The notes: a model not told the origin generated them from the sequence alone. Shown: positions 8,686-27,320, counted from the stretch's first letter. The stretch is DNA of 64,000 bases from Chitinophaga pinensis (GCA_945861665.1 CAMAVS010000007.1:7277-71276), one strand, 5' to 3'. A program made the numbers and translations.

Positions 8686-11600
8686 ATGTTAGATTTTATA
8701 AATAAATCCATAGGAAAGCTTTTTGGCAATAAATCGCAAAAAGACATCAAAGAAATACAACCCATTGTTGAAAAAATATTGGCTGCAGGTGAGCAATTAA
8801 AAAATATAAGCAACGATGAACTTAGAGCAAAAACAGTAGACTTCAAAAAACGGATAGCCGACTACATTGCGAAAGAAGAAAAAGAGATTGTTGATTTAAG
8901 AGCACTCACGGAAGCAAATCCGGATATGGATGTGCAAGAAAAGGAAAAACATTACAATGCCATTGATCAGAACAAGAAAACAATAAAAACAAAAATACAG
9001 GAAATACTAAACGAAATACTGCCCGAAGCTTTTGCAGTTGTAAAAGAAACAGCAAAACGTTTTAAGGAAAATACGAGCTTAGAAGTAACTGCCACTCAAA
9101 TGGACCGTGATATGGCTGCTGCTCGCGAGAGTGTGAAAATACAAGGTGAAAAAGCCCACTTTAGCAATACCTGGATGGCAGCAGGGAACAAAGTTACCTG
9201 GGATATGGTACACTACGATGTTCAGCTGATTGGCGGTATCGTGTTGCACCAAGGAAAAATATCGGAGATGGCTACAGGGGAAGGAAAAACACTTGTTGGA
9301 ACACTTCCCATTTATTTGAATGCACTTGCCGGAAAAGGAGTGCACATTGTTACCGTAAACACCTACTTATCGAAACGAGATTCGGAATGGAACGGACCAA
9401 TTTTTGAATTTCACGGATTAAAAGTAGATTGTATTGACAAGCACGACCCAAACTCTGACGAAAGAAAAAAAGCCTATTTAGCAGATATTACTTACGGTAC
9501 AAATAACGAATACGGATTCGATTACCTCCGCGATAATATGGCGCGCTCACCAGAAGATTTGGTTCAACGTGAACACAACTATGCTATAGTGGATGAGGTG
9601 GACAGTGTATTGATTGACGATGCTCGTACTCCCCTTATTATATCGGGACCAACTGCGAAAGGTGATACACACGAATTTTTTCAATTAAAACCGCGTGTAG
9701 AAAAATTGGTGAATGCACAACGTAATTATGTAAATACAGTGCTTGCCGATGCTAAAAAAATATTGGCACTAAACGATTCTAAAAAAAATGAAGAAGGTGG
9801 ATTTGCTTTGCTACGCGCCTTTAGAGGATTGCCAAAGAACAAAGCATTGATAAAGTTTTTAAGTGAACCGGGCATAAAAGCACAATTGCAAAAAGTTGAA
9901 AACCACTATATGCAAGACCACGGCAGAGAGATGCCAAAGGTGGATGCTGAATTGTATTTTGTGATTGACGAAAAAAATAATTCCATTGAATTAACTGAAA
10001 AAGGAATAGAGTTAATGTCATCGGGTTCGCCTGAGGATGCTAAGTTTTTTGTGTTGCCCGATGTAGGAAGCGAAATGGTTGAGATTGATAAATCAACTTT
10101 ACCTGCGGAACAAAAATTACAACGCAAAGAGGAGCTAATGAGAAACTTCTCGATAGCATCGGAAAGGGTTCATACAGTTAATCAATTGCTAAAATCATAT
10201 ACCTTGTTTGAGATTGACGTGGATTATGTGGTGATGGAAAACAAAATTAAAATTGTGGATGAGCAAACAGGTCGTATACTCGAAGGCAGAAGATATTCCG
10301 ATGGTTTACACCAAGCCATTGAAGCAAAAGAAAATGTAAAAGTAGAAGCCAGCACACAAACATTTGCTACCGTTACTTTGCAAAATTATTTTAGAATGTA
10401 CAACAAATTGGCGGGTATGACCGGTACTGCCGAAACAGAAGCAGGTGAATTTTGGGATATATACAAATTGGATTGCGTTGTAATACCAACAAACAGAGCC
10501 ATTTCAAGAACCGACAGAGAAGATTTAGTATACAAAACAAAACGTGAAAAATACAATGCGGTTATAGAAAACATTATTGAAGAAGTTGGAAAAGGGCGAC
10601 CGATATTGGTAGGTACAACATCCGTTGAAATATCGGAATTGCTAAGCAGAATGCTTAAACTGAAAGGCATAAAGCACAATGTATTGAATGCAAAATTACA
10701 CCAACGTGAAGCTGAAATTGTTGCAGAAGCAGGTCAAGCAGGTACTGTTACCATTGCCACCAATATGGCCGGTAGGGGAACGGATATAAAATTAGGAGCA
10801 GGAGTAAAAGATGCAGGAGGGCTAGCCATTATTGGTACTGAACGACACGATTCACGAAGGGTTGACAGACAATTAAGAGGGCGTGCCGGTCGTCAGGGTG
10901 ACCCGGGAACATCACAGTTTTTTGTTTCCTTGGAAGATGATTTAATGCGTTTGTTTGGATCGGATAGAATTGCAAAATTAATGGACCGAATGGGTATTGA
11001 AGAAGGTGAAGTAATTCAACATTCAATGATTACCAACTCGATAGAACGTGCACAGAAAAAAGTAGAAGAGAACAATTTTGGAACACGTAAGCGTTTGTTG
11101 GAATACGATGATGTGATGAACTCGCAACGTGAAGTGGTATACAAAAAACGCAGACATGCATTGTTCGGTGAACGTTTGTCGTTGGACATTTCCAATATGC
11201 TGTACGATGTATCGGAAAGTATTTGTACCAATACACAGGAGCAAAAAGATTTTGAAGGATTCGCCTTTGAATTAATAAAAACATTCTCCATTGAAAATCC
11301 GGTTTCGGAAAACGATTTTATGAAATTGCCTACCAACGAACTTACCGAAAGAGTATTTGATGTTGCATACAGACACTACATTAAAAAATCGCAGGAAATG
11401 GGCGAAGCTACTTTCCCTGTGGTGAAAAATGTATACGAGAACAGCGCACATATGTACGAGAATATTATTATTCCTTTTACCGATGGAATAAAAACATTAC
11501 AGGTTCTTTCCAATCTAAAAAAATCGTACGAATCGAAAGGACGTGAAGTATTCACCGCTTTCGAAAAAGGTGTTACACTCTCCATTATTGACGAAGCATG

Positions 11601-11997
11601 GAAAGACCATTTACGTGCTATGGACGAATTAAAACAATCGGTACAAAATGCTGTATACGAGCAGAAGGATCCTTTGTTAGTATATAAATTTGAATCCTTT
11701 GGTTTGTTTAAAAATTTGATGAGCGAGGTAAACAACGATATTATTTCCTTCTTACAAAAAGGCTATTTGACAGCCGAAAATCAACAAGCCGTGCGTGAAG
11801 TACAAGCAGCACCAAAGGCCGACCTAAAAAATTTACAAGCAACAAAAACCGAAGTTACAAGCAGTGGCAGAGAAGAACTTCCGAACGAACAAGAAAAACC
11901 AAAAGCACAACCCATACGCGTTGAAAAACAAGTAGGAAGAAACGATCCTTGTCCTTGTGGTAACGGGAAGAAGTTTAAGCATTGTCATGGAAAGTAG
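8686..11997 (+). CDS. secA: preprotein translocase ATPase SecA
   Basis: 1103 aa; DEAD-like motor motifs ([27 protein letters not shown]), C-terminal zinc-binding tail [15 protein letters not shown]. Confidence 0.97.
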
Positions 11998-15295: not shown

Positions 15296-17779
15296 TTATT
15301 TTAGTTGCAATTTCGTAATTTTAATCTCTGTTCTTCGGTTCTGCTTGTGCTCATCCTCAGTACACGTTACGCCATTTTTGCAACGATTCAATATCTTTGA
15401 TTCTCCCATTCCAGCTCCTACAATTCGAATAGGGTCGCCACCCTTTGAAACAATATAATCAATTGCTGTTTTAGCGCGTTTTTGAGAAAGGACTAAATTT
15501 TTATCATCACTGTCACGTGCATCGGTGTGCGAAAAAAGCTCAATGGCAATATTTGGGTTGCTTATTAAGATAGAAACCACTTTATCCAATTGCGCTGAAC
15601 CTTCTGGTTTAATATCCCATTTACCTAAGTCGTAATAAATATTTTCGGCTGCTTGCCCCTCCTTTATACTTACGTTAAGCGATGTGTTTTGTTCATCTAC
15701 CAATGAAAGTTTATTATAATCGGTTGAAAGGCTTTCGAAACGAAAAAAACCATCGGCATCTGTTTTGGTTGATTTTAATACTGCACCCTTTGCTCCTCCC
15801 AGTATAACACTTACGTTTGCAGTTGGGTCATCGGGCATACCGTTAACCAATACTTTACCCAATACAGTATGTTTTTTACTGGTGCTAATTTTAGGATTAG
15901 TTTCGTCAATAATAACAATATAGTTATTATCGGTTGCTAGTTTTTCGAAACGGAAAAATCCATCTGACCCTACCTTTGTTTTTGCAATCACATTACCTTG
16001 TTGGTCGTTTAACACTACTTCAACACCTTCTCCTGCCTGGTTAAGTTCATCACCTATCATAACCTTACCAATAATCACCACATTTTTTTTAACATTAAGA
16101 GTTACATTTTCCTCATCCATTAAATTAAGTGTATTGAAATCGGTGTTCAGTTTTTCAAATTTAAAAAAACCTTTTTCATCGGCTACTACTTCACGCATTG
16201 CAACACCTTGTTTATTTCTAACAATAATTTTGGCATTTATTCCCGGTTGCCCTTCGTTGTAGTATAATTTACCATACACTTTTGATGCTTTAGCTTTTGT
16301 ATTTAGGCCTGTTTCATCTGCATCCAATAGTATAATATAGCTTTGTTCTGTTGATAGTTTTTCAAAACCAAAAAACCCCAAATTTGTAGTTTTTCCTACT
16401 TTAATAATTTCCCCTTTTTGATTGAGCAATTTTACATTAAAATTGTTTGCTGGATCTAACTCATTTTTCATAAGCTGTCCTGAAATGGACGTAATTTTTA
16501 TGTCTGCAACTTTAGATTTAAAACGATAAATATCATCACTACCCTTTCCACCTAATCTGTTTGAGGAAAAATATCCTTTCTTATCATCATCAGTAAACAT
16601 GATTCCAAAATCGTCAGTAGAAGAATTTATAGGCGTTTGTAAATTTGTTACCGATGTCCACGTATTGTCAATATTACGTGCAGAAAATATATCTAATCCT
16701 CCAATTCCGATATGGCCGTTTGAAGAAAAATAGAGTGTTCCTGTGGAGCTGTAAAATGGATAGCATTCATCTGCATCAGTATTTATTTCAGAACCTAAAT
16801 TTTCGGATTTCCCCCAAGTTGTTCCTTCTCTTTTACAAACATATAAATCTTTTCCTCCATATCCACCAGGCATATCTGAAGTGAAGAATAACAATTGTCC
16901 ATCAGTTGACAAAGCTGGGTGAGCACATGAATAATCATCACTATTAAAAGACAACAGCGTTACATCCTTCCAACCTGATGTTGTGGCTTCAATAGATTTA
17001 GCAGAATATATTTTAGGTCGAAAAACAGCTTCCTGACCTTTCTTTTGGGATGTATTTGTTTTATCAACACGGGTAAAAAACATTTCTTTAAAGTCGGCAC
17101 TAAAGGTGCAAGGTCCATTATGGTATTCTGTGTTTACTCGACTTGGGAATGAGCGCCCTTCTTCAAAGAAGGTGTTGTTTTTTTTAGTTTTTAATTCGCT
17201 ATAGAATAACGCTAAATAAGGCTTATCGGTCCAGCCATACGTAGTGTTGTTAAGCAAATCTTTTTCTCGTTCTGATACAAATGCTATTCCGGTTTTATAC
17301 ATAATAGGGCAAAAGTCGGCATTTTCCGTATTTAACTCCCCTACGTTAGAAACATCGTATTCTTGTGGCTTTTGGGACCACACTTTTGTCATTACACATG
17401 ACATAATAAATGCTTCTGTTCGCTTGTTGGGTGTTACTTCTTTAGAATACAACGTAAATTGCTGTTTTGCTTCTTCTAATTTATTGTTATTCTTAAGTGC
17501 TTCGCCAAAGTAAAGATGATTTACAGGAGCAACATCTTGCTGCTGAAACAGTTTAGCATAGTACCTTTCAGACTCTTGGTAATTGTTGGTTAAACGATAG
17601 CAATTTGCAACTTTTTCAATGGCTTCTTTGTTATTCTTTTTAACCTTTTTCAAGTACAAAGGAATTGCTTTTGAGTAGTAATAATCGTTGTATAATTTAT
17701 TTGCTTTTTTATTTTGCGCAATGACACTACTTCCTAAAATTAGAAGCAATGCAAACAAAAATATTTTCTTCAGTTTCAT
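15296..17779 (-). CDS. OmpA family protein: N-terminal TPR, TolB-like WD40/beta-propeller repeats, five CarboxypepD_reg-like repeats, C-terminal OmpA peptidoglycan-binding domain
   Basis: 827 aa; signal peptide; repeated …DGFFRFEKL… modules; C-terminus …SHTDARDSD…LSQKRAKTA…NRRTEIKI is OmpA_C signature. Confidence 0.85.
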   Translation of the reverse strand: MKLKKIFLFALLLILGSSVIAQNKKANKLYNDYYYSKAIPLYLKKVKKNNKEAIEKVANCYRLTNNYQESERYYAKLFQQQDVAPVNHLYFGEALKNNNKLEEAKQQFTLYSKEVTPNKRTEAFIMSCVMTKVWSQKPQEYDVSNVGELNTENADFCPIMYKTGIAFVSEREKDLLNNTTYGWTDKPYLALFYSELKTKKNNTFFEEGRSFPSRVNTEYHNGPCTFSADFKEMFFTRVDKTNTSQKKGQEAVFRPKIYSAKSIEATTSGWKDVTLLSFNSDDYSCAHPALSTDGQLLFFTSDMPGGYGGKDLYVCKREGTTWGKSENLGSEINTDADECYPFYSSTGTLYFSSNGHIGIGGLDIFSARNIDNTWTSVTNLQTPINSSTDDFGIMFTDDDKKGYFSSNRLGGKGSDDIYRFKSKVADIKITSISGQLMKNELDPANNFNVKLLNQKGEIIKVGKTTNLGFFGFEKLSTEQSYIILLDADETGLNTKAKASKVYGKLYYNEGQPGINAKIIVRNKQGVAMREVVADEKGFFKFEKLNTDFNTLNLMDEENVTLNVKKNVVIIGKVMIGDELNQAGEGVEVVLNDQQGNVIAKTKVGSDGFFRFEKLATDNNYIVIIDETNPKISTSKKHTVLGKVLVNGMPDDPTANVSVILGGAKGAVLKSTKTDADGFFRFESLSTDYNKLSLVDEQNTSLNVSIKEGQAAENIYYDLGKWDIKPEGSAQLDKVVSILISNPNIAIELFSHTDARDSDDKNLVLSQKRAKTAIDYIVSKGGDPIRIVGAGMGESKILNRCKNGVTCTEDEHKQNRRTEIKITKLQLK

Positions 17780-17784
17780 TTCAA

Positions 17785-18726
17785 TTAAAAATAACGCGGT
17801 GAAAGGGTTTTGTCCTTTGTAATATCCAAATCAAAACCAATAAATAATTCATGTGAGCCATTACTTACTGTTTTCAACTTATTCATTTGGTAATCGTACG
17901 CATAGCCTAAACGCAACTTTCTAGTTGGATTAATTTCAAAATTAAAAACCAATCCGTTATTACTACGTATGCCAAGTCCAAACCAAAAATTTCCGCTGAA
18001 TAAAAAGCTGGCGTTCAAATCAACACTTCCGGGAGCATTTTTAACAGTTTTAATAACCATTGAAGGCTTAAACGTTACTGCATCACTAAAGCGAAAAGCT
18101 TTCCCTACGGTTCCTATAAAGTGTCGCGACAAAGAGGCCGTTGCACCACTAAAGCCGTTACTGGCAGTGTAATTGTCTTCATCAAGATGCGATATAGCTC
18201 CGCCAATGTAATATGAATTGGTATAATAATACATGCCGAAATCGTATGTGCTTACTATTTTTTGTGCTTGTGATGAACTGTTGTAAATATCTGTAGCGTC
18301 CTTGTAATCAATTTCATTCCACTTAAAACGATAGCTATATACCCCAGCTCTTATTCCAAATGCAAGTTTCCCGCTTTTAAGTTTAATTCTATAAGCAAAA
18401 GAACCAAGAACTCCGGCTGTACTTTTAGGACCAATTTCGTCTGTAAGTATGTGGAATCCAATTCCCAATTTTTGATTTTTTAGTGGAGTATGTACACTTA
18501 ATGTATTTGTTTTTGGTGCCCCAGGGATACCAACCCACTGATTCCTATGCAATGCAACAATACTAATAGACTCACGACTTCCGGCATAAGCAGGATTTAG
18601 AACTAAAGAGTTAAACATATATTGTGAGTATTGTGCATCTTGTTGAGCAAAGGAGACACCCGCCAAAAAAAACAAGCAAATAACCCCAATTTTATTTTTC
18701 ATTTGATATACTGTTTTTCTATTCAT
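17785..18726 (-). CDS. type IX secretion system membrane protein, PorP/SprF family
   Basis: 313 aa; N-terminal AQQDAQYSQYMFNSLVLNPAYAGSRE… is the family hallmark; beta-barrel-like Gly/Tyr-rich C-terminus ending …RYF. Confidence 0.85.
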   Translation of the reverse strand: MNRKTVYQMKNKIGVICLFFLAGVSFAQQDAQYSQYMFNSLVLNPAYAGSRESISIVALHRNQWVGIPGAPKTNTLSVHTPLKNQKLGIGFHILTDEIGPKSTAGVLGSFAYRIKLKSGKLAFGIRAGVYSYRFKWNEIDYKDATDIYNSSSQAQKIVSTYDFGMYYYTNSYYIGGAISHLDEDNYTASNGFSGATASLSRHFIGTVGKAFRFSDAVTFKPSMVIKTVKNAPGSVDLNASFLFSGNFWFGLGIRSNNGLVFNFEINPTRKLRLGYAYDYQMNKLKTVSNGSHELFIGFDLDITKDKTLSPRYF

Positions 18727-18736
18727 TTTTCAAAAC

Positions 18737-19513
18737 CTATTTTGTAATCTCAACCCAACCTTTATAGATATTGTTTGGTACTTTGTCGGTTAAAACTATA
18801 ATATAAAAGTATGTTCCATCGGGAAGTGGCTGACTGTTTGTTTGGTAATTTCCTTCAAATACCACTTTCACATTATCATATTTTGGAGCACTGTAAACAA
18901 TGGTTCCGTACCTATTAAAAATGGAAACCCCGTTGTTAGGAAACAAATCAATTCCATCAATAATCCATTTATCATTTATCCCATCACCGTTTGGAGAGAA
19001 TCCTTTGTAAATTGTTAAATCGCATTCCCCTGCAAAACTCAACTCAATGATTACAGTGTCTACAGCTATCTCAGCCGTTTCTGCGTCCGTTACTGTTATA
19101 ATATAAGATCCCTCTTGCAACCCAAAAATGGAATCTTTATTGGACGAAATAGGTGACCATTCGTAGCTAAAATTACCCGAACCTCCACTAGCATAAACCT
19201 TTGCCCAACCATTATTGGCTGTTTTACAACGGGAGTTTGAGAACTTAATGGAATCAATATGTATTGCCAATTTGCCTGATGGTTGATGAAAACCTTGAGT
19301 AATATAATTCGTCCCATTTTGTATGGTAGTTACGCAAGGTTCGCCTACAGACCAAGCAATGTTCATTGTCCCCAAATCATAACCTGCATTTCCTACATTG
19401 GAAATTAAAAAAGGTGTAATGCTAGGGGTTTGCGCAACTAATATAGTACTACCCATCAATAGGAGTATAAACAGTTTGTATTTTGTATTGTTTATCCGTT
19501 TCATTTTAATCAA
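18737..19513 (-). CDS. small T9SS type-B (gliding-motility-associated) C-terminal-domain protein with a single SprB-type repeat
   Basis: 258 aa; signal peptide; CKTANNGWAKVYASGGSGNFSYEWSP…GSYIITVTDAE resembles SprB repeat; C-terminal …YKGFSPNGDGINDKWIIDGIDLFPNNGVSIFNRYGTIVYSA…GWVEITK matches type-B CTD; 10-nt gap to PorP/SprF gene. Confidence 0.8.
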   Translation of the reverse strand: MIKMKRINNTKYKLFILLLMGSTILVAQTPSITPFLISNVGNAGYDLGTMNIAWSVGEPCVTTIQNGTNYITQGFHQPSGKLAIHIDSIKFSNSRCKTANNGWAKVYASGGSGNFSYEWSPISSNKDSIFGLQEGSYIITVTDAETAEIAVDTVIIELSFAGECDLTIYKGFSPNGDGINDKWIIDGIDLFPNNGVSIFNRYGTIVYSAPKYDNVKVVFEGNYQTNSQPLPDGTYFYIIVLTDKVPNNIYKGWVEITK

Positions 19514-22289
19514 CTTTTGTAATGGTATACTTTATTTTTGCACCATAAATTGCTGTGTGAGAGAGAGGATTGGTATACGTAACGGCACTATACCGTATCC
19601 AATATTTGTAAACTCCTGTTTCAATAATTGGGTTAGTTATGGAATTTGTTGTTTGGGTAGTTTGCCCAGCATTAAAAACTGCTGAAGTTGAAACTGTTGC
19701 CATAGTTATTGTAGTTCCTCCGGCCGTTGCGCGTACAAGTTCAGCGGTATTGCCAAATAATATAGTATTGTCAGAAAAAGTTGCTTCAAAATCAGTTACA
19801 GTAGCTGAATCTGGCAAATAAATTGGTGCCGATAAATAAACAATTTGACCGGCATTTCCAGTAACTGATTTCGCCCAAACCCATAATTGAGAAGGGTCAC
19901 TAGTAATATCAAAGATATCATTGTTGGCACCCGCCTCAACAAATGCAATACAAGGAACGGAAATAGCTTTTGCTTTTATATTCCTAAACCTGTAATCACT
20001 TACAGCATCAATTTTAATGTTACCGCCAACAACATCAAGTTTTGCCGATGGGGCAATGATGCCAATACCAACATTGCCATCAAAGTACGCTGCAGAACTG
20101 GAGGCTCCTTGTTTTGCATACAATGCTGTCCAAAGGCCTGCCCGATTAGCAAGTACAGCAAACTCTGTATTCAACAACGGTCCACCTGCTGGATAGAGGG
20201 CGCGAATAGCACTATTTCCAGAAGACCCTGCCGTGGAGGATACATCCAACATATGGCCATTAGGGTTTGTAGTCCCAATACCCACCCTTCCATTATTATC
20301 AATTATCATTTTATTAAGAACCCCATTTAGTCCGTGAAAAGAAATTGTATCGGCATTTAATTTTATTCTTTGTGTGGTTTCTAAAATAATATGTCCTCCC
20401 GAATTTTGGTTTTCCACCATCAAACGATTCATAGGGGAAGGAACAAAAGATAATTTTGCTGCCATATTTGAACTTTTTAGTAAAACCGTACTTGGGCTAT
20501 TAACTGTGTTGTAAATTAATACACTGGTACCAAATATATTTGAACCATTAAAACGACCAACCGTTGTATCGCTAACTGTACCAACAACAGACAATGGAGC
20601 TAATGGACTCGTTGTTCCTATACCAACCCTTCCTATACCATTTAAACCAGGAGCGGGACTTATGTGCATTGTAGGGACATTAGAACCCATTCCGAATTGA
20701 ATTGAATTTGGAATGGTATTGCTAAGAGGTAAAATAGCACTAATGCCGCTTCCTATTACACAATTATTTGGAGCACTAGTTATTACATTTACTCCTAAGG
20801 CAATCGCATTATTAGCATTTGAAACAGCATTTGCTCCAATTGCTACAGAGCCTTGGTTATTTGCTTTTGAGAAAAATCCGAAGGAATAAGAAAAAAGTCC
20901 TAATGCTTCGGACCTATAACCAATTGCCATGGAATTTACACCGGTAGCTTTTGTTTTTGAACCAATAGCAATTGAGGCAAGGCCACTTGCGGTTGGAGTA
21001 TTACCTAAAGCAATTGAAGAGTCGCCACTAGCTGTAGGATTGTATCCAAGCGCTGCTGAATACCCCCCTAAAGATGCATCGTTCCATTGCGTACCATTAA
21101 CAGCTCCTGCTCTAAATGCTGATTTTTTGGGATACCAAATCATCCAACTTCCTGCATTAGCATCCCATGGTGTTCCAGCTCCATGTGTTCCTCTAAACCA
21201 AATCCCATCATTGCCTGAAACTTGTAAATTAGGTACAACACTAACATTACCCCCTATATGAATTTTATCGGTTATGTTATTTGGGTATAATGTTCCGCTT
21301 ATGTTCTTCCATAAACTTGTTCCTCCGGGTAAATCAGAAGCTTTTATTGAGTCTGCTATAAAATAACTTCCATTTGCTCTTAAATACTTCCCGGCAACAG
21401 CAGTTCCATTATACTTATACCCTAATGTTGTGTTTGCTCCACCAACAACATCTAACTGCTGAACAGGTGCATTATTATTAATTCCAACTTTGTCACCAAG
21501 GTTTGCAGGATAAATATTCGTTCCAGATCTAGTCCAGGGGGGAAACGCAATTGCTGCAGGTAAATCAGCTAATTTAATAGAGTCTGCGATAAAATAAGAA
21601 CCATTTCCTCGTAAGTATTTTCCGGTAACTGCCGAATTTTTATATTTATAACCATTCAATGTGTTTACATAACTTCCTGCACTTATTTTGCTATTTGACA
21701 TAATGGAGTCTGTAGCATGAATGTCGCCAGTTACATCTAATTTGGAGGTAGGGCTATTACCAATACCAACATTTTGGTTAATGTCAATCCGCATTGCTTC
21801 GAGGCTGTTTGTTTTAAAAATTAAAGGATTTAAGTTAATTGTCCCTAAATAATCATTCGCTTCTGTAACATTTCCACTTCTATTCCAACCTAAGAAAGAA
21901 GCGTAACTGAAAAGGGAAAATGGAACTGCTTCGAATTGCGTTTTGGGCCCCATAGTCATATAAGAAACTCCTCCTGCAGTGTCAACAGACACCTCTAGGT
22001 CTATCCCGAAATCCCAAGGGAGAACTGCAAATTGCAACGGAGCTTGACTCCCAAGAACATATGTAAAAAGTCCAAACTTATTTGTTGTAGTATTTATAGT
22101 TTCGTTATAGACAGATAGCCCTGAAACGTGATTAAATAATTCAAACTTTACTCCAATATTTTGAGCATCGAAACCCTTTCCATTCGCATCTCTTACCACT
22201 CCTTGATAATTGAAACCATTAAACGGAAATTGAGCAAAACTTGCAATTGAAATTGCAGAAAAAAGAAGTACTAATAATTTAAATTTCAT
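19506..22289 (-). CDS. large secreted fibre-like protein (phage tail-fibre-like Gly/Thr-rich beta repeats), no T9SS CTD
   Basis: 927 aa; signal peptide; N-terminal domain paralogous to 22294-23589 product; duplicated ~35-aa segment (…NSAVTGKYLRGNGSYFIADSIKLADLP… / …GTAVAGKYLRANGSYFIADSIKASDLP…); recurring VGIGTTxPxxKLDVxG motifs; 8-nt overlap with downstream type-B CTD gene. Confidence 0.6.
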   Translation of the reverse strand: MKFKLLVLLFSAISIASFAQFPFNGFNYQGVVRDANGKGFDAQNIGVKFELFNHVSGLSVYNETINTTTNKFGLFTYVLGSQAPLQFAVLPWDFGIDLEVSVDTAGGVSYMTMGPKTQFEAVPFSLFSYASFLGWNRSGNVTEANDYLGTINLNPLIFKTNSLEAMRIDINQNVGIGNSPTSKLDVTGDIHATDSIMSNSKISAGSYVNTLNGYKYKNSAVTGKYLRGNGSYFIADSIKLADLPAAIAFPPWTRSGTNIYPANLGDKVGINNNAPVQQLDVVGGANTTLGYKYNGTAVAGKYLRANGSYFIADSIKASDLPGGTSLWKNISGTLYPNNITDKIHIGGNVSVVPNLQVSGNDGIWFRGTHGAGTPWDANAGSWMIWYPKKSAFRAGAVNGTQWNDASLGGYSAALGYNPTASGDSSIALGNTPTASGLASIAIGSKTKATGVNSMAIGYRSEALGLFSYSFGFFSKANNQGSVAIGANAVSNANNAIALGVNVITSAPNNCVIGSGISAILPLSNTIPNSIQFGMGSNVPTMHISPAPGLNGIGRVGIGTTSPLAPLSVVGTVSDTTVGRFNGSNIFGTSVLIYNTVNSPSTVLLKSSNMAAKLSFVPSPMNRLMVENQNSGGHIILETTQRIKLNADTISFHGLNGVLNKMIIDNNGRVGIGTTNPNGHMLDVSSTAGSSGNSAIRALYPAGGPLLNTEFAVLANRAGLWTALYAKQGASSSAAYFDGNVGIGIIAPSAKLDVVGGNIKIDAVSDYRFRNIKAKAISVPCIAFVEAGANNDIFDITSDPSQLWVWAKSVTGNAGQIVYLSAPIYLPDSATVTDFEATFSDNTILFGNTAELVRATAGGTTITMATVSTSAVFNAGQTTQTTNSITNPIIETGVYKYWIRYSAVTYTNPLSHTAIYGAKIKYTITKVD

Positions 22290-22293
22290 GTTT

Positions 22294-23589
22294 TTATAGT
22301 TCGTAAGTGATTAGAATTGTAAAGGTTTTACTATATATTGCGCTTGAATTTGATATAGTATTTTGAACATCAATGGTTCCTGTGGCATTATTTATATAAT
22401 AGTTGTATTCAGTAGCTCCAATGTTATTTGAAGGTGGGATAAATAAATTTCCAGTGGCTACAAGAATACTAACAGATAATATTTTGCTAGATGTTACTCC
22501 GTGAAATATCGTTACAGTGCCACCTGAAACGCCAGAAGTGGTTCCTGTAATTTTTTTTGTTTGAATAGCCGGAGCACCGTTACCCAGACTTGTATAATTA
22601 TACATTGTTGCATTTCCTGCTGCATCTATAGACATTCTATTTGCGCCACTTGTTCCTAAATAAAGTGGAGTTGCATCATAATTTAATATGCTCACAGCAA
22701 TATTACTGTAATCTAACCGGAAATTAGCACCACCAGTTCTGCTCAATTTTATTTGCGGGTTGTTTACGTCAAACACATCTAATTTCGCAGTAGGTGTACT
22801 TGTTCCTATTCCAACATTTAAACCATTATTAAACACATTGCTATTATTTACTACCCAAATAGATCCATTCCAATAAGGTGTATTTCCCGCAATCATACCA
22901 TTTGGCAATAACCCCGTTATACCTTGAACTCCTTGAATTCCTTGAAGGCCCTGAAACCCTTGCAATCCCTGGATCCCTAGTGGGCCTTGTATCCCTTGTA
23001 TTCCCTGTATTCCCTGTGGACCCTGAGGTCCAACAGGGCCAACCAAACTAACACCCTGAGGCCAAGAGCCAACCGTTTTTGGTCCGTAAAATGTATTGGT
23101 TAATACATCAATGTAAAAATCGCCATCATTACCTGTACCCTGTAAAGGTGATATGTTACCACTTATAATTGTATTTGCATTAACGCCACCAGCCGAAGCT
23201 GCATATAAGGCATATGGTACCGACTGAAAAGGCTGAGCTGCGCCTAAAGGAACAAAATTAGTCCCACCTGCAATTGTATCAATATATACTTGTATAGAAT
23301 GTATCCCTGACGACCAATTGATTTGTTGGAAAGACGGATTGTTCTGGCTTCCTAACACTACGGTAAATAACCCAAAAGCATTTGTTGTAATAAGTCCTAC
23401 ATGCTGCTCTGTAAATTCAATCGCATTGGCATTATCCAAAATCTCAAATTTGATACTTATAGACTGAGCAGACAGCGCTTTCTTGTTTGCATCTCTGGCA
23501 ATTCCTTGATAATTTATTCCTTGGGGTGGCGCTTGCGCTAATACAAAAGTTGAAAATGCAAAAAACAATAATGTTAAATTCTGTTTCAT
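22294..23589 (-). CDS. collagen-like (GXY triple-helix repeat) secreted protein, no T9SS CTD
   Basis: 431 aa; signal peptide; N-terminal domain paralogous to the 927-aa protein (…[13 protein letters not shown]…[11 protein letters not shown]…); uninterrupted G-X-Y tract [45 protein letters not shown]; 4-nt gap to next gene. Confidence 0.65.
22915..23050. repeat. 9-bp-periodic collagen-like (GXY)n coding repeat
   Basis: cttgaactccttgaattccttgaaggccctgaaacccttgcaatccctgg… on + strand = (GIQ/GLQ)n codons on minus strand. Confidence 0.7.
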
Positions 23590-23656: not shown

Positions 23657-23983
23657 TTAATTCATAAAGACTATTACATATTTACTAATAGATCCTCCAT
23701 TTTCTGTAGCTTTACGATTGGAATATGAAAGTGTTTGAGTTGCTTCAAATGAGCACCACAAATCTTTGGATTGAGCATGTTTTACTCCCTGTGCTGCAAA
23801 AGCATTATTGCCAATTTCAACAAGGAGGAAGGTTGGTGCTCCGAAAAGTTCCGGTATAGGGAGATTCATTAAACCCTTTTCACTGCAAGGGCTGCCACTG
23901 GGTGAAGGAACAGCAAATGCGCTTAAAAACGCAATACATAAGACACTTAACAGGGCAAAAGAAAAGTACTGCATTTTTCTCAT
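23657..23983 (-). CDS. small secreted hypothetical protein
   Basis: 108 aa; signal peptide; two Cys; 67 nt upstream of collagen-like gene, same strand. Confidence 0.35.
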   Translation of the reverse strand: MRKMQYFSFALLSVLCIAFLSAFAVPSPSGSPCSEKGLMNLPIPELFGAPTFLLVEIGNNAFAAQGVKHAQSKDLWCSFEATQTLSYSNRKATENGGSISKYVIVFMN

Positions 23984-24051: not shown

Positions 24052-25851
24052 CTAATTGACTTTAAACCCTATAACTAAAATGTCGTCTACTTGCTCTTGT
24101 GCTCCTCTCCATTTTTCAATAATTGAGTCGAGGGTTGATTTTTGTTCATCAACCGATAATTGGTGCAATTCCATCAGCGTTCTGCGAAACTGATTCACCA
24201 TAAATTTTTTTCCTTTAGGTCCGCCAAACTGGGAAGCATAACCATCCGAGAAAACGTAAACACAGTCTCCTGTTTGAAGAGGAATAACGTGGTTGGTATA
24301 TGGCTTTGTATCTTCTCCTACATAATACCCTATAGGGAATTTATTCGCTTTGATTTCTATTAGTGTTCCATCTCTAATAATCAACAGTGGATTAAAAGCC
24401 CCTGCATATTGCAATTCCTTCTTTTTGTAATCAATAGTACACAGCGTAATGTCCATTCCATCTTTAGAAGTTGACCCTTTGTATGATTGGTGAAGTGTTT
24501 CATTCACACCAATATTTAAGGCATCCAAAATTTTTGCAGGCTCTGTAATTCCGCTATTATTTACAACATACTTAAGAATGTTAAAGCCTACTATACTCAT
24601 AAATGCTCCGGGAACACCGTGGCCAGTACAATCAACTGCTGCAAAAAGTGTTTTTCCATCCTTTTCTTCCATCCAATAAAAATCACCACTCACAATATCT
24701 TTGGGTTTATAAAGTATAAAAGAATTTGGCAGTAATTTTCTAACCAAATTCCGAGGAGGAAGAATAGCTTCCTGAATGCGTTTAGCATAAAAAATACTAT
24801 CGGTAACTTGTTTATAAAGCACCTCTAAAATTTCGGTTTTAGACTGGATTTCTTCTTTTTGTTTCACAACCTCCTCTGTTCTTTCAATCACCTTTGCTTC
24901 TAATAATTTTTCATTTTCAGCCAAATCGGTACGCATTTTTAATAATGCTTGACCAAGTTCATCTTCACCACTTAATGGATTATATTCTGACCCAAAATTT
25001 CCGGAACCAACTTGGTTTGCGAATTCTGTAGTGCTCCTCATTCCGTCCACTAAAAAATTTAAAGCTGTACCCATTTCTCCGATTTCATCGTTTCTGTTTT
25101 GAATTTTTTCAGTGGGCAATACCCCTTTACCCATTCCAAGCAAAATTCTCTTAAAGGAGTTAATTGGTTGGACGATTGAAATAACAGTAAAAAATGCAAT
25201 TAATATGCCTCCAACTGGAAGGGCAATGGTAAGAATCATTACTGCTAATTGTAAAAAATTTAGTGACTTGTTCATTTCATTACTCACGCTGTTTGCGAAA
25301 TTTTTTTGAATATCAATGATTTTTTCGAGGTTTGCTAATGTTCTTGTGGTGGATGAAAAAATGGGGCCCTCAGTTACCGATTCGCGCGATTGGAAAACAG
25401 CCAATGTATTATTTTCGCTATAATCTTCCATTTTATCGAGCTGCAACATCAGATCGTGGTACATGCTAAACAAAGAATCAATGGATAAAAAAACAGAATC
25501 GATTTGCATACGTTCAGCGTCTTTCCACTTATACGATATTCTTTGAAGTTGCTTTTTTTGTACAGGAAACAAATCGTCCATTAACAAGCGAAGTTCTTTT
25601 TTCTCTGCTTTATCGCTGCCACTGGCAACCCAAATCCAATTGTTGATAAGCCCCTTAGACTTCACTAACAACAATTTTAATTGCTGTAATGACGTTACAG
25701 ACGGAGAGAAAATATCGTTTATGTCATCGTTTATCTGTTTGCTTTTTTTGCTCGTTTGTTGGGTGAGAAGAAAAGCTCCTAACGTAAGAAATATCAAAAC
25801 ACCAAACCCAAGTCCGATTTTTCTCCCAATGCTGAATTTAAACTTTTTCAA
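24052..25851 (-). CDS. membrane sensor PP2C-type Ser/Thr phosphatase (periplasmic sensor - TM - HAMP - coiled coil - SpoIIE/PP2C)
   Basis: 599 aa; two TM segments flanking ~170-aa extracytoplasmic region, HAMP-like segment, C-terminal …DIVSGDFYWMEEKDGKTLFAAVDCTGHGVPGAFMSIVG… PP2C/SpoIIE catalytic motifs. Confidence 0.8.
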   Translation of the reverse strand: MKKFKFSIGRKIGLGFGVLIFLTLGAFLLTQQTSKKSKQINDDINDIFSPSVTSLQQLKLLLVKSKGLINNWIWVASGSDKAEKKELRLLMDDLFPVQKKQLQRISYKWKDAERMQIDSVFLSIDSLFSMYHDLMLQLDKMEDYSENNTLAVFQSRESVTEGPIFSSTTRTLANLEKIIDIQKNFANSVSNEMNKSLNFLQLAVMILTIALPVGGILIAFFTVISIVQPINSFKRILLGMGKGVLPTEKIQNRNDEIGEMGTALNFLVDGMRSTTEFANQVGSGNFGSEYNPLSGEDELGQALLKMRTDLAENEKLLEAKVIERTEEVVKQKEEIQSKTEILEVLYKQVTDSIFYAKRIQEAILPPRNLVRKLLPNSFILYKPKDIVSGDFYWMEEKDGKTLFAAVDCTGHGVPGAFMSIVGFNILKYVVNNSGITEPAKILDALNIGVNETLHQSYKGSTSKDGMDITLCTIDYKKKELQYAGAFNPLLIIRDGTLIEIKANKFPIGYYVGEDTKPYTNHVIPLQTGDCVYVFSDGYASQFGGPKGKKFMVNQFRRTLMELHQLSVDEQKSTLDSIIEKWRGAQEQVDDILVIGFKVN

Positions 25852-25880
25852 TTGTTCTCGTTGATAGAATTAATGCTAAA

Positions 25881-26792
25881 TTATTTTTTCTCTAATGCAA
25901 CCAACCTATTGTTGTACTCCTGCTTCTTTTCGTCATCCAATAGGGCTTGATAAATTTGCCTTAAACCAACTAATGTTTCACGTCTATTTGGTCTTAAATC
26001 GTCTGCTTTTAACATTAGAGGTAAACTATTTTTAAATATTTCAGATGTTTTATCCAATATATCTGTCATTATCAAAATATCCTCGTCAACAGGCATAGAA
26101 TTAATCATCTCAGCACCTTGATTATAATACAATATAGCTTGGTTAAAATTCGCATCGTAATTGTTTGAATCAATTGACAATACTTTATAATAATACTCTA
26201 TCGCTTGTTGGAAATGCTCCTCTAACACTTTTTTCAATACATCGTTTGGATTTTGAGTTATATTTTTTTCATATATGCCTTTATGAACTGAGGCTAAGGC
26301 ATTGTAAAACTCAATATCCTTTGTCTTAAAATCTGTGGATGGGTTAACGTATAATTGACATTGTTTATAATTATCCATCGAGATGATTGCATACGCAATA
26401 TTTGTGGAGTCTAAGAACTTTGCTGCATAATTGTTAAAGTAAACAGAAAGGTTATATATGCTCTTATTATTCTCTATACGATTTTCGGAGGAGGTGTCAA
26501 TTCTATTTGATTCTAAGAATGAATTGTAAGCCACTTCGCCAAGCCATTTAATATTTTTTGGTTCAGGGAAACTTTTTCGGAATACTTGACTGTAAACATA
26601 TCCTCTAATATACCAGGCCCTGCCATCATTGAAATAATCTGGCATAAGTACCGTAGAGTCGATTGATTGCATTGCTCTCGTTAGATCACCTTTTTCAACA
26701 TACGTAATCGCAATAGACACTTTATCTACCTGAGCGTTGGCAGTAAACACCACCAAGAACAGTATCGCAAATATGTATTTATTAAATCTCAT
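25881..26792 (-). CDS. TPR-like repeat secreted protein
   Basis: 303 aa; signal peptide; helical-repeat Tyr/Asn/Ala composition (…AILYYNQGAEM…YYKVLSIDSNNYDANFNQA…); 6-nt gap to DUF4154 gene. Confidence 0.4.
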   Translation of the reverse strand: MRFNKYIFAILFLVVFTANAQVDKVSIAITYVEKGDLTRAMQSIDSTVLMPDYFNDGRAWYIRGYVYSQVFRKSFPEPKNIKWLGEVAYNSFLESNRIDTSSENRIENNKSIYNLSVYFNNYAAKFLDSTNIAYAIISMDNYKQCQLYVNPSTDFKTKDIEFYNALASVHKGIYEKNITQNPNDVLKKVLEEHFQQAIEYYYKVLSIDSNNYDANFNQAILYYNQGAEMINSMPVDEDILIMTDILDKTSEIFKNSLPLMLKADDLRPNRRETLVGLRQIYQALLDDEKKQEYNNRLVALEKK

Positions 26793-26798
26793 TTCTAC

Positions 26799-27320
26799 TT
26801 ATTCAACTTTTATACTCAATGATTCCAAATTTGAACTCACTTTTAAACCATACTTTTCGGCATTCGCCTTATTTAGCTCAAATTTTTGTTTATTGTCCTT
26901 TACTACAAAATTTATTGCTGCACCTTGTTTAGCTAAGCCTGGTTTTTCTGTAACAAGCAACGTGTTACTTCCTTTGATCTTCAATAAAACATCTTTCATT
27001 GCATTCTTATAATCTTCTGAAACGTATAGAATATGACATTTTGAAATAGCCCCTGTATTATTAAACGTTTTTATTTCAAAAATCTGACTAGCTGCCTTTT
27101 TAGTTAGAGCCATATTGTTAAGTTCATTAATGATGGCAGAAGTTCCAAGAATTCCAATCACAAAATTGCCTTGCTTTTGGGAACCTGGCCACTCAATATA
27201 TTTTGTGAAATTATATACAAAAACAGCCTTAACTTTTGAGGTCGTATCATCTGCCCCTCTCGTAACTGTGGTGATAAAAATAATAACAAAAGAAATAACT
27301 ATTCTTAAGACTTTATTCAT
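26799..27320 (-). CDS. YfiR/DUF4154-like periplasmic protein
   Basis: 173 aa; signal peptide; …VFVYNFTKYIEWPG…GNFVIGILG…KCHILYVSE… resembles DUF4154 (YfiR family) core. Confidence 0.5.
   Translation of the reverse strand: MNKVLRIVISFVIIFITTVTRGADDTTSKVKAVFVYNFTKYIEWPGSQKQGNFVIGILGTSAIINELNNMALTKKAASQIFEIKTFNNTGAISKCHILYVSEDYKNAMKDVLLKIKGSNTLLVTEKPGLAKQGAAINFVVKDNKQKFELNKANAEKYGLKVSSNLESLSIKVE

Follow-up and report, generated by a model that had tools for sequence, protein, structure and literature searches.

Two adjacent genes in a 64,000-nucleotide stretch of DNA from Chitinophaga pinensis (GCA_945861665.1 CAMAVS010000007.1:7277-71276; this whole stretch is called the window below) encode fibre proteins, A and B, that are new members of an already known superfamily, the mosaic adhesive trimer (MAT) fibres. 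Genes for fibres of this type are reciprocally linked to a gene for a small protein bearing a type IX secretion system (T9SS) sorting domain, and this linkage appears to be the new result. On balance we favor a reading in which A and B are MAT-type fibres encoded in one operon, and in which the N-terminal domain (N-domain) that they share docks the fibres, themselves devoid of a T9SS C-terminal sorting domain (CTD), on a T9SS-anchored adaptor. The adaptor candidate in the window is referred to here as mini-SprB, and the part of it that might contact the N-domain is a module of 47 amino acids (aa). The open reading frames (ORFs) and domains concerned are the following.

22294..23589, minus strand: fibre A, ORF of 431 aa with signal peptide, MAT-type N-domain, insert, collagen, shaft motif and tip
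23197..23535, minus strand: N-domain of A, aa 19-131 (BLASTP to B, E=1e-25; AlphaFold2 beta-sandwich; Bdello_MAT_N, 1e-11 for signal-peptide-less sequence)
22906..23040, minus strand: collagen triple-helix of A, 15 GXY triplets, aa 184-228 (regular expression and Pfam PF01391, 184-226)
22297..22644, minus strand: C-terminal tip of A, aa 316-431, ~115 aa (tip match in locus L009; phrog_3018)
19506..22289, minus strand: fibre B, ORF of 927 aa with signal peptide, MAT-type N-domain, beta-rich shaft, YadA-head-like repeats and tip
21900..22232, minus strand: N-domain of B, aa 20-130 (BLASTP to A; tblastn of the window)
20730..21092, minus strand: YadA-head-like left-handed beta-roll repeats of B, aa ~400-520 (Pfam, NCBIfam and PDB sequence matches)
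19509..20027, minus strand: C-terminal tip of B, aa 755-927 (match to the tip of a 599-aa fibre in L009)
18737..19504, minus strand: mini-SprB, adaptor candidate, with signal peptide, 47-aa module, one SprB repeat and type B CTD (Pfam SprB and CHU_C, TIGR04131)
19280..19420, minus strand: 47-aa partner module of mini-SprB, aa ~29-75 of the 255-aa form, ITPFLISNVG...ITQGFHQP (phmmer; module profile, E=1.1e-16; alignment)
17785..18726, minus strand: PorP/SprF-family outer-membrane protein (PF11751, E=2e-74; TIGR03519, 263.8 bits, cut-off 90.55)
15296..17779, minus strand: PorE-like protein (Pfam PD40 propeller, CarboxypepD_reg and OmpA_C peptidoglycan-binding domains)

Two adjacent fibre proteins share an N-terminal domain

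The ORFs of A and B adjoin each other on the minus strand, where a first-pass annotation of the window had placed them; its interval, 21890-23589, comprises the whole of A and the first ~133 codons of B. The annotation proposed that a paralogous N-terminal domain follows both signal peptides, and this is borne out. BLASTP aligns residues 5-130 of A with residues 6-128 of B in a single strong segment (42% identity over 126 aa, 61% positives), and the domain proper is ~110 aa long. Loss of significance under composition-corrected statistics had been named as an outcome that would speak against the proposal. The E value of 1e-25 was obtained with compositional matrix adjustment, and tblastn of each N-domain against the whole 64-kb window returned two copies only, with a cross-match at E~2-4e-24 and the next best match at E>2. 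The similarity therefore lies far above chance.

Both domains begin right behind the signal peptide, at Gln19 of A after a predicted signal-peptidase I site (VLA/QA) and at Gln20 of B after a predicted signal-peptidase I type site (SFA/QF). The 42% identity between the two compares with 38-49% to family members of other genomes. As the N-domain of A is equally distant from B and from the other genomes, there is no sign of a recent in-situ or tandem duplication.

A and B are related to the MAT fibres

MAT fibres have been described as prey-recognition adhesins of Bdellovibrio bacteriovorus, with a ~130-aa domain, conserved and rich in beta structure, behind the signal peptide, for which no structural homologue and no partner was identified, and with a capping-loop motif V-G-G/N-pi-x-x-P-x-x-x-L (Caulton et al. 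2024, PMC10769870). Supplementary Table S3 of that study holds five members from the FCB group, including a collagen-like Saprospiraceae protein; KAOT1_09059 of Kordia algicida OT-1 is also in that table. A and B show the same build. A beta-rich domain lies right behind the signal peptide in both, and both carry a capping-loop-like motif in the shaft, VGI[GN]xx(x)PxxxL. A has a single copy (259-270) and B has four, a count that 0/2000 shuffles of B equaled. The motif deviates from the MAT capping-loop at position 3, which is Ile and not G/N, and in three of the five copies there is one extra residue.

Pfam lacks a model of the N-domain of A or B. The NCBIfam model NF053851 (Bdello_MAT_N) matches A with E=7.7e-13 (48.6 bits) and B with E=1.9e-6 (27.8 bits). 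It also matches all 13 signal-peptide-less family domains tested (E<=0.01, best 1e-11), as well as 58/65 complete relatives at E<=0.001. From these profile matches we regard homology of the A/B N-domain to the MAT superfamily as highly probable, and A and B lie outside the Bdellovibrio subfamily that NF053851 models.

An AlphaFold2 model of the N-domain of A, built from 119 sequences, is a beta-sandwich with a predicted local distance difference test score (pLDDT) of 84 and a predicted template-modeling score of 0.74; residues 1-100 score above 80. The most invariant motif of the domain is SVPYALYA, and residues 101-110 reach a pLDDT of 62 in this monomer model. A low-confidence, invariant motif of this kind is what would be expected of an interface. 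No homologue was found among PDB sequences with the N-domain profile (best E=0.97), and Foldseek returned no PDB structure for the model at E<=1e-3 (best template-modeling (TM) score 0.45). A search of BFVD gave weak Ig-like or transthyretin-like matches only, and TM scores across the structural neighbors were 0.40-0.52. This agrees with the statement of Caulton et al. 2024 (PMC10769870) on the MAT N-domain.

The family is large. A profile of 13 N-domains, searched against 1.84 billion representative proteins, matched 29,022 cluster representatives at E<=1e-3, among them 8,651 with E<=1e-30, so the domain is not private to this locus. Among the top 150 matches it starts at residue 3-42 in proteins of 170-1764 aa, and the names given in databases go no further than "hypothetical" or "collagen-like protein". 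Among the related loci examined, the 200 with an organism label are nearly all assigned to Bacteroidota. The first-pass annotation had held that a ubiquitous generic Ig fold without locus specificity would count against its idea; the domain is indeed a generic beta-sandwich and ubiquitous in Bacteroidota, while the place it takes in the protein and the genes it adjoins are highly specific.

Shafts and tips are exchanged on a constant base

The 65 complete relatives whose domain architecture we examined come from 80 genome loci. Nearly all of these loci bear a Bacteroidota label, mostly Chitinophagales, with Taibaiella koreensis THG-DT86 (L017) as the one cultured strain. According to Pfam, collagen follows the N-domain in 31 of the 65, Peptidase_S74, a self-cleaving C-terminal chaperone, is present in 14, C1q in three and Lcl_C in two. 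Lectins, a GDSL lipase and the YadA head, the last found only in B, are single cases. The tips of A and B are themselves non-S74. Both tips recur on other shafts in L009. The tip of A is found there in a 923-aa fibre (42% over 118 aa, E=3e-16), whose shaft is much longer than that of A. A 599-aa fibre bears the tip of B (28% over 174 aa, E=2e-12); its shaft is collagen, where B has a YadA-head one. The N-domain is thus shown to be a constant base that carries a mosaic of exchangeable shafts and tips, as is characteristic of MATs. The earlier proposal of a common head with swappable shafts fits these architectures well.

Behind the N-domain of A, the (GXY)15 collagen helix that had been predicted is exact, with 15 triplets at residues 184-228 recognized by Pfam Collagen. 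In B the N-domain is followed by ~800 aa of beta-rich sequence, in which residues ~400-520 match YadA-head repeats (Pfam YadA_head, E=4.7e-16; BpaC, PDB 7o23, E=6e-11, and also YadA, 1p9h). The annotation had the two proteins diverge completely downstream. For the shaft and the tip this is right, since they are unrelated; the short shaft motif common to A and B means that the downstream parts are not entirely so.

Collagen and YadA-head are obligate trimer folds. From these shaft types A and B are both likely to be homotrimers, and their adhesin-type domains and T9SS linkage point to a location on the cell surface.

Pfam and NCBIfam find no type A, B or C sorting domain of the T9SS at the C-terminus of A or B (E<=0.1), and none of the 65 relatives has one at E<=0.001. 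B also lacks a C-terminal YadA-type beta-barrel or autotransporter anchor, as the Pfam scan finds YadA_head alone and NF033478 reaches 46 bits where its cut-off is 750. We therefore rejected a trimeric autotransporter identity for B. In contrast to YadA and BpaC, whose head repeats it resembles, B would be attached by its N-terminus, with opposite polarity. Identity with the Scl/Lcl collagen adhesins of Gram-positive bacteria and Legionella was rejected as well, as the full-length models reach 20-28 bits against cut-offs of 325-500 and match the GXY repeat only.

Several features of A are worth recording. A 45-aa insert (residues 136-180, window 23050-23184) lies between the N-domain and the collagen helix; it is absent from the L009 homologue and present in an 80%-identical fragment, P0001. 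The tip (residues 321-429, window 22297-22629) resembles the C-terminal part of PHROG 3018, a "head decoration protein" (E=4.8e-7), so that the tip domain of A, unlike the N-domain, seems to be common to phage proteins. In 47 blocks of the collection searched, metagenome contigs encode a protein identical to A.

Set beside the Bdellovibrio MATs, A and B have in common with them the signal peptide and beta-rich N-domain, shafts of an obligate-trimer type and capping-loop-like motifs. Across the family, tips are exchangeable, with S74, TNF/C1q-like and lectin variants, and there are several paralogues per genome. They differ in that the shafts are collagen and YadA-head, and in that the host is a T9SS-bearing member of the Bacteroidota and no known predator. 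They differ further in being linked to a small T9SS-sorted adaptor candidate and PorP/PorE-like genes, a pairing absent from accounts of the MATs, the anchor of which was stated to be unknown.

Fibre genes are linked to a small T9SS-sorted partner

Clustering of the neighbors of N-domain genes in 81 loci gave one dominant family, found in 48 loci by single linkage. After false links were removed, a profile hidden Markov model of its conserved module matched 43 ORFs in 40 loci, with the module always N-terminal. In the typical partner, of ~155-190 aa, the ~47-aa module lies behind a signal peptide and is joined by a short linker to a CTD of T9SS type A (PF18962/TIGR04183). The module, with the consensus xVIxxxG...IGE...T...hTQGFhQP, is spanned by no Pfam or NCBIfam model. 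A T9SS sorting domain, of type A or type B, is present in all ten partners scanned.

Mini-SprB belongs to this family through its module. Residues 1-95 match the small partners by phmmer with E values of 1e-11 to 1e-6, and the module is the only part common to mini-SprB and the ~170-aa type A CTD partners of other genomes. The only conserved part of the partner outside the CTD is thus the 47-aa module, and the only conserved part of the fibre is the N-domain.

The linkage holds in both directions. Starting from the fibres, we found 85 runs of fibre genes, with the partner directly upstream in 33, directly downstream in 8 and absent in 21; the other 23 could not be judged. An adjacent partner is therefore present in 41 of the 62 evaluable loci. 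Starting from the module, 120 metagenome stretches chosen solely by a degenerate DNA pattern for ITQGFxQP yielded 84 module ORFs. An N-domain gene lies within 150 bp on the same strand in 52 of them and within 3 kb in five; 18 are too near a contig end, and nine have room yet no N-domain gene. In five of these nine, an upstream fibre-like ORF is cut by the edge of the locus before its N-terminus. A protein search with the module returned just six short proteins, which is no measure of the size of the adaptor family.

Distances between N-domains co-vary with those between the adjacent modules (Spearman 0.32 in 61 type A pairs, reached in 0/2000 Mantel permutations). The corresponding value for the CTDs of the same partners is 0.06. 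We found no description of the partner in the searchable literature on T9SS piggyback or adaptor proteins and on MAT fibres in Bacteroidetes.

Three loci (L037, L041 and L146) hold two adaptor-fibre pairs in tandem. In the first two, both adaptor modules are nearly identical and the fibre lengths differ, which suggests duplication of the whole pair followed by diversification of the fibre.

The operon of the window includes a putative socket

The gaps between the genes of A, B, mini-SprB, the PorP/SprF-like protein and the PorE-like protein are 4, 1, 10 and 5 nucleotides (nt), and the best reading of the five genes is one operon for the fibres and their socket. A scan for promoters and terminators found fewer sites than in shuffled sequence and was uninformative.

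Mini-SprB has 255 aa from an ATG or 258 aa from an upstream TTG, and gene callers give 255 or 239 aa. Its CTD scores 85.2 bits with PF13585 (cut-off 27) and 53.2 bits with TIGR04131 (cut-off 35), which together with the adjacent PorP/SprF-family gene marks it as T9SS type B cargo. Proteins with a type B CTD stay uncleaved and bind PorP-like barrels, and PorP-PorE-like pairs have been proposed as the cell-wall tether of non-mobile cargo (Gorasia et al. 2022, PMC9143113). Cognate PorP/SprF shuttles have been shown by Paillat et al. 2025 (PMC12618676). The PorP/SprF-like protein of the window is predicted to be the cognate shuttle and anchor of the mini-SprB CTD. The product of 15296-17779, which NF052230 (T9SS_PorE) matches with E=5.6e-105 and 352 bits, below the cut-off of 600, is by its sequence a PorE-like paralogue.

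A gene with an SprB repeat and a CHU_C CTD, followed by PorP/SprF and PorE-like genes, is the arrangement that has been proposed for type B cargo which does not move and is anchored in the cell wall; the closest known systems of this sort are SprB-SprF and PG1035-PorP-PorE. Unlike other type B cargo, mini-SprB is tiny (255 aa), and its only other conserved part is the module that it has in common with type A mini-proteins. It appears to be a carrier of other proteins and not itself an adhesin.

The cassette of fibre genes, a ~258-aa partner, PorP and a PorE-like gene recurs in L005, L007, L015, L049 and L071, with one to four fibres. These five cassettes have an extra large gene with a CHU_C (type B CTD) domain between the mini-SprB and PorP-like genes; both copies scanned, at L005 12678-14924 and L071 12813-15695, contain FG-GAP repeats. 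The window has only 10 nt at this place (18726-18737) and has lost the extra gene or never had it.

A possible docking mechanism

It is gene linkage that points to an attachment role for the N-domain and to its pairing with mini-SprB. The fibres would be exported by Sec and would then trimerise. The PorE-like protein would bind peptidoglycan and hold the PorP/SprF-like outer-membrane barrel, which in turn would hold the uncleaved type B CTD of mini-SprB; we infer this chain from the work of Gorasia et al. 2022 (PMC9143113). The 47-aa module at the N-terminus of mini-SprB would bind the N-domain of the fibre, and a single adaptor could display two fibres that differ in reach and specificity. 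We propose that A and B keep the same N-domain because one shared adaptor serves both. In other genomes the adaptor, mostly of type A, would be reduced by CTD removal to a peptide of ~65-75 residues, predicted to be linked to anionic lipopolysaccharide. As to the export route, the fibre might ride the T9SS translocon bound to the adaptor, or might dock after leaving the cell otherwise.

The base of the fibre has well-known parallels in its layout. The collagen-like trimer BclA of the Bacillus exosporium is held by its N-terminal domain on BxpB/ExsFA. A and B resemble BclA in the constant N-terminal attachment part, in the collagen-like shaft of A and in the small dedicated anchor candidate. 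They likewise resemble phage tail fibres, whose N-termini dock on baseplate or adaptor proteins, with a constant N-terminal part, a trimer-type shaft, a variable distal tip and a small anchor candidate. Neither system has sequence homology to A or B, and the anchor candidate here, unlike theirs, is a T9SS substrate.

Extended to the phylum, the reading would be that Bacteroidota use a widespread and so far undescribed two-component display. In it, an adaptor made of hardly more than the 47-aa module plus a sorting domain for the T9SS, either type A or type B, would carry CTD-less MAT fibres through their N-domain, and trimeric fibres would come to the surface fully folded, piggy-back on a T9SS substrate. 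We put this forward tentatively, as a serious possibility. If true, it would identify the missing MAT anchor for one phylum and would add non-covalent hitch-hiking to the repertoire of the T9SS. It would also explain how fibre genes can be swapped and stacked, one to four per cassette, with the anchoring hardware unchanged, and would provide a compact pair of modules with which proteins could be displayed on the surface of Bacteroidota. The linkage already gives a concrete, testable anchor candidate for the partner of the MAT N-domain that was left open in 2024, and suggests that the T9SS might display proteins without a sorting domain through a dedicated carrier. As a cultured carrier of the pair, of type A and located at L017 9305-9814 and 9836-12265, T. 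koreensis THG-DT86 makes the idea testable.

A number of points weigh against the favored reading as a whole. The curated NF053851 cut-off of 60 bits is reached by none of A, B and the relatives. Bdellovibrio has MATs and is not known to have a T9SS, so the N-domain would have another partner there or a role independent of a partner. In the 21 of 62 evaluable fibre runs that lack an adjacent partner, the adaptor would need to act in trans or would not be obligatory. With a mean distance of 0.79, the CTD alignment is close to saturated, which makes the mirror-tree control weak and its support modest. The AlphaFold2 model of mini-SprB, from seven sequences, has a pLDDT of 42 and is unusable. Finally, a profile match of 916 aa, P0016, indicates that the N-domain can also serve as a plain structural module. 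It carries six tandem copies of ~100 aa each (E 1e-9 to 5e-29), with SVPYALYA outside the repeat matches. The C-terminus of P0016 is FlgD_ig / T9SS-CTD-like, and the protein is probably T9SS cargo.

Alternative explanations

The six tandem repeats, the generic beta-sandwich with its weak structural neighbors (TM 0.40-0.52) and the third of evaluable runs without an adjacent partner would all suit an N-domain that is a trimerization or assembly nucleus or a proximal spacer. The small neighbor would then make no contact with the fibre; it would be co-regulated and unrelated, either an accessory adhesin or a surface protein of the T9SS. We consider this unlikely. The mature type A partner would have ~65-75 aa, just module plus linker, with little room for an independent function. 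Moreover, adjacency is reciprocal with gaps of few nucleotides, the distances of N-domain and module co-vary, and the most invariant motif is the low-confidence part of the monomer model, as it would be at an interface.

Phage fibre genes are commonly paired with genes for small chaperones. The small protein might by analogy be a periplasmic folding or trimerization chaperone and not an anchor, and the tight translational coupling and the 51/65 fibres without a built-in S74 chaperone speak for this. A chaperone has no need of a T9SS sorting domain, yet every partner scanned bears one, and in the window mini-SprB is accompanied by its own PorP/SprF shuttle and PorE-like anchor. We judge the chaperone explanation improbable.

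The N-domain itself might direct export or targeting and be read by a machine of the outer membrane, either the T9SS or another, with the small cargo sharing regulation only. Consistent with a signal, the domain always lies right behind the signal peptide, likewise in Bdellovibrio, where the partner was not identified. The T9SS signals described in the literature consulted are C-terminal, however, and a signal leaves unexplained why the 47-aa module is conserved beside fibres in both type A and type B contexts. We give this explanation little chance.

That A and B are the remnant of prophage or contractile-injection-system tail fibres is effectively refuted: PHROG tail-fibre families match A through the collagen repeat only and the N-domain has a weak fold similarity to phage minor tail proteins, but the neighbors are T9SS and signaling genes with no phage genes, GC content is flat over the region, and the N-domain occurs in none of the 50,697 phage records of GenBank and in just two of the 2.9 million contigs of IMG/VR. 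The likeness to phage tail-fibre N-termini drawn by the first-pass annotation is accordingly good as an analogy and fails as a homology.

Other genes of the window

Directly upstream of the fibre operon, the minus strand of 24052-27320 encodes three proteins. One is periplasmic and YfiR-like (26799-27320), the second is a TPR protein (25881-26792), and the third is a 595-aa SiaA-like phosphatase with HAMP and SpoIIE domains (24052-25851). This phosphatase also lies just upstream of fibre or CHU_C genes in L004, L006, L020, L029, L030 and L035, a neighborhood that suggests that the fibres are under biofilm-type signaling control.

A further minus-strand ORF at 23657-23983, 67 nt upstream of A, encodes 108 aa with a signal peptide (105 aa according to gene callers). 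It has no homologue in the ~200 loci and no family match, and we did not count it in the system. Elsewhere in the window, the 290-position SecA_DEAD profile stretches over residues 11-590 of the 1103-aa SecA (8686-11997, plus strand), which indicates a large insertion in the motor domain of this SecA.

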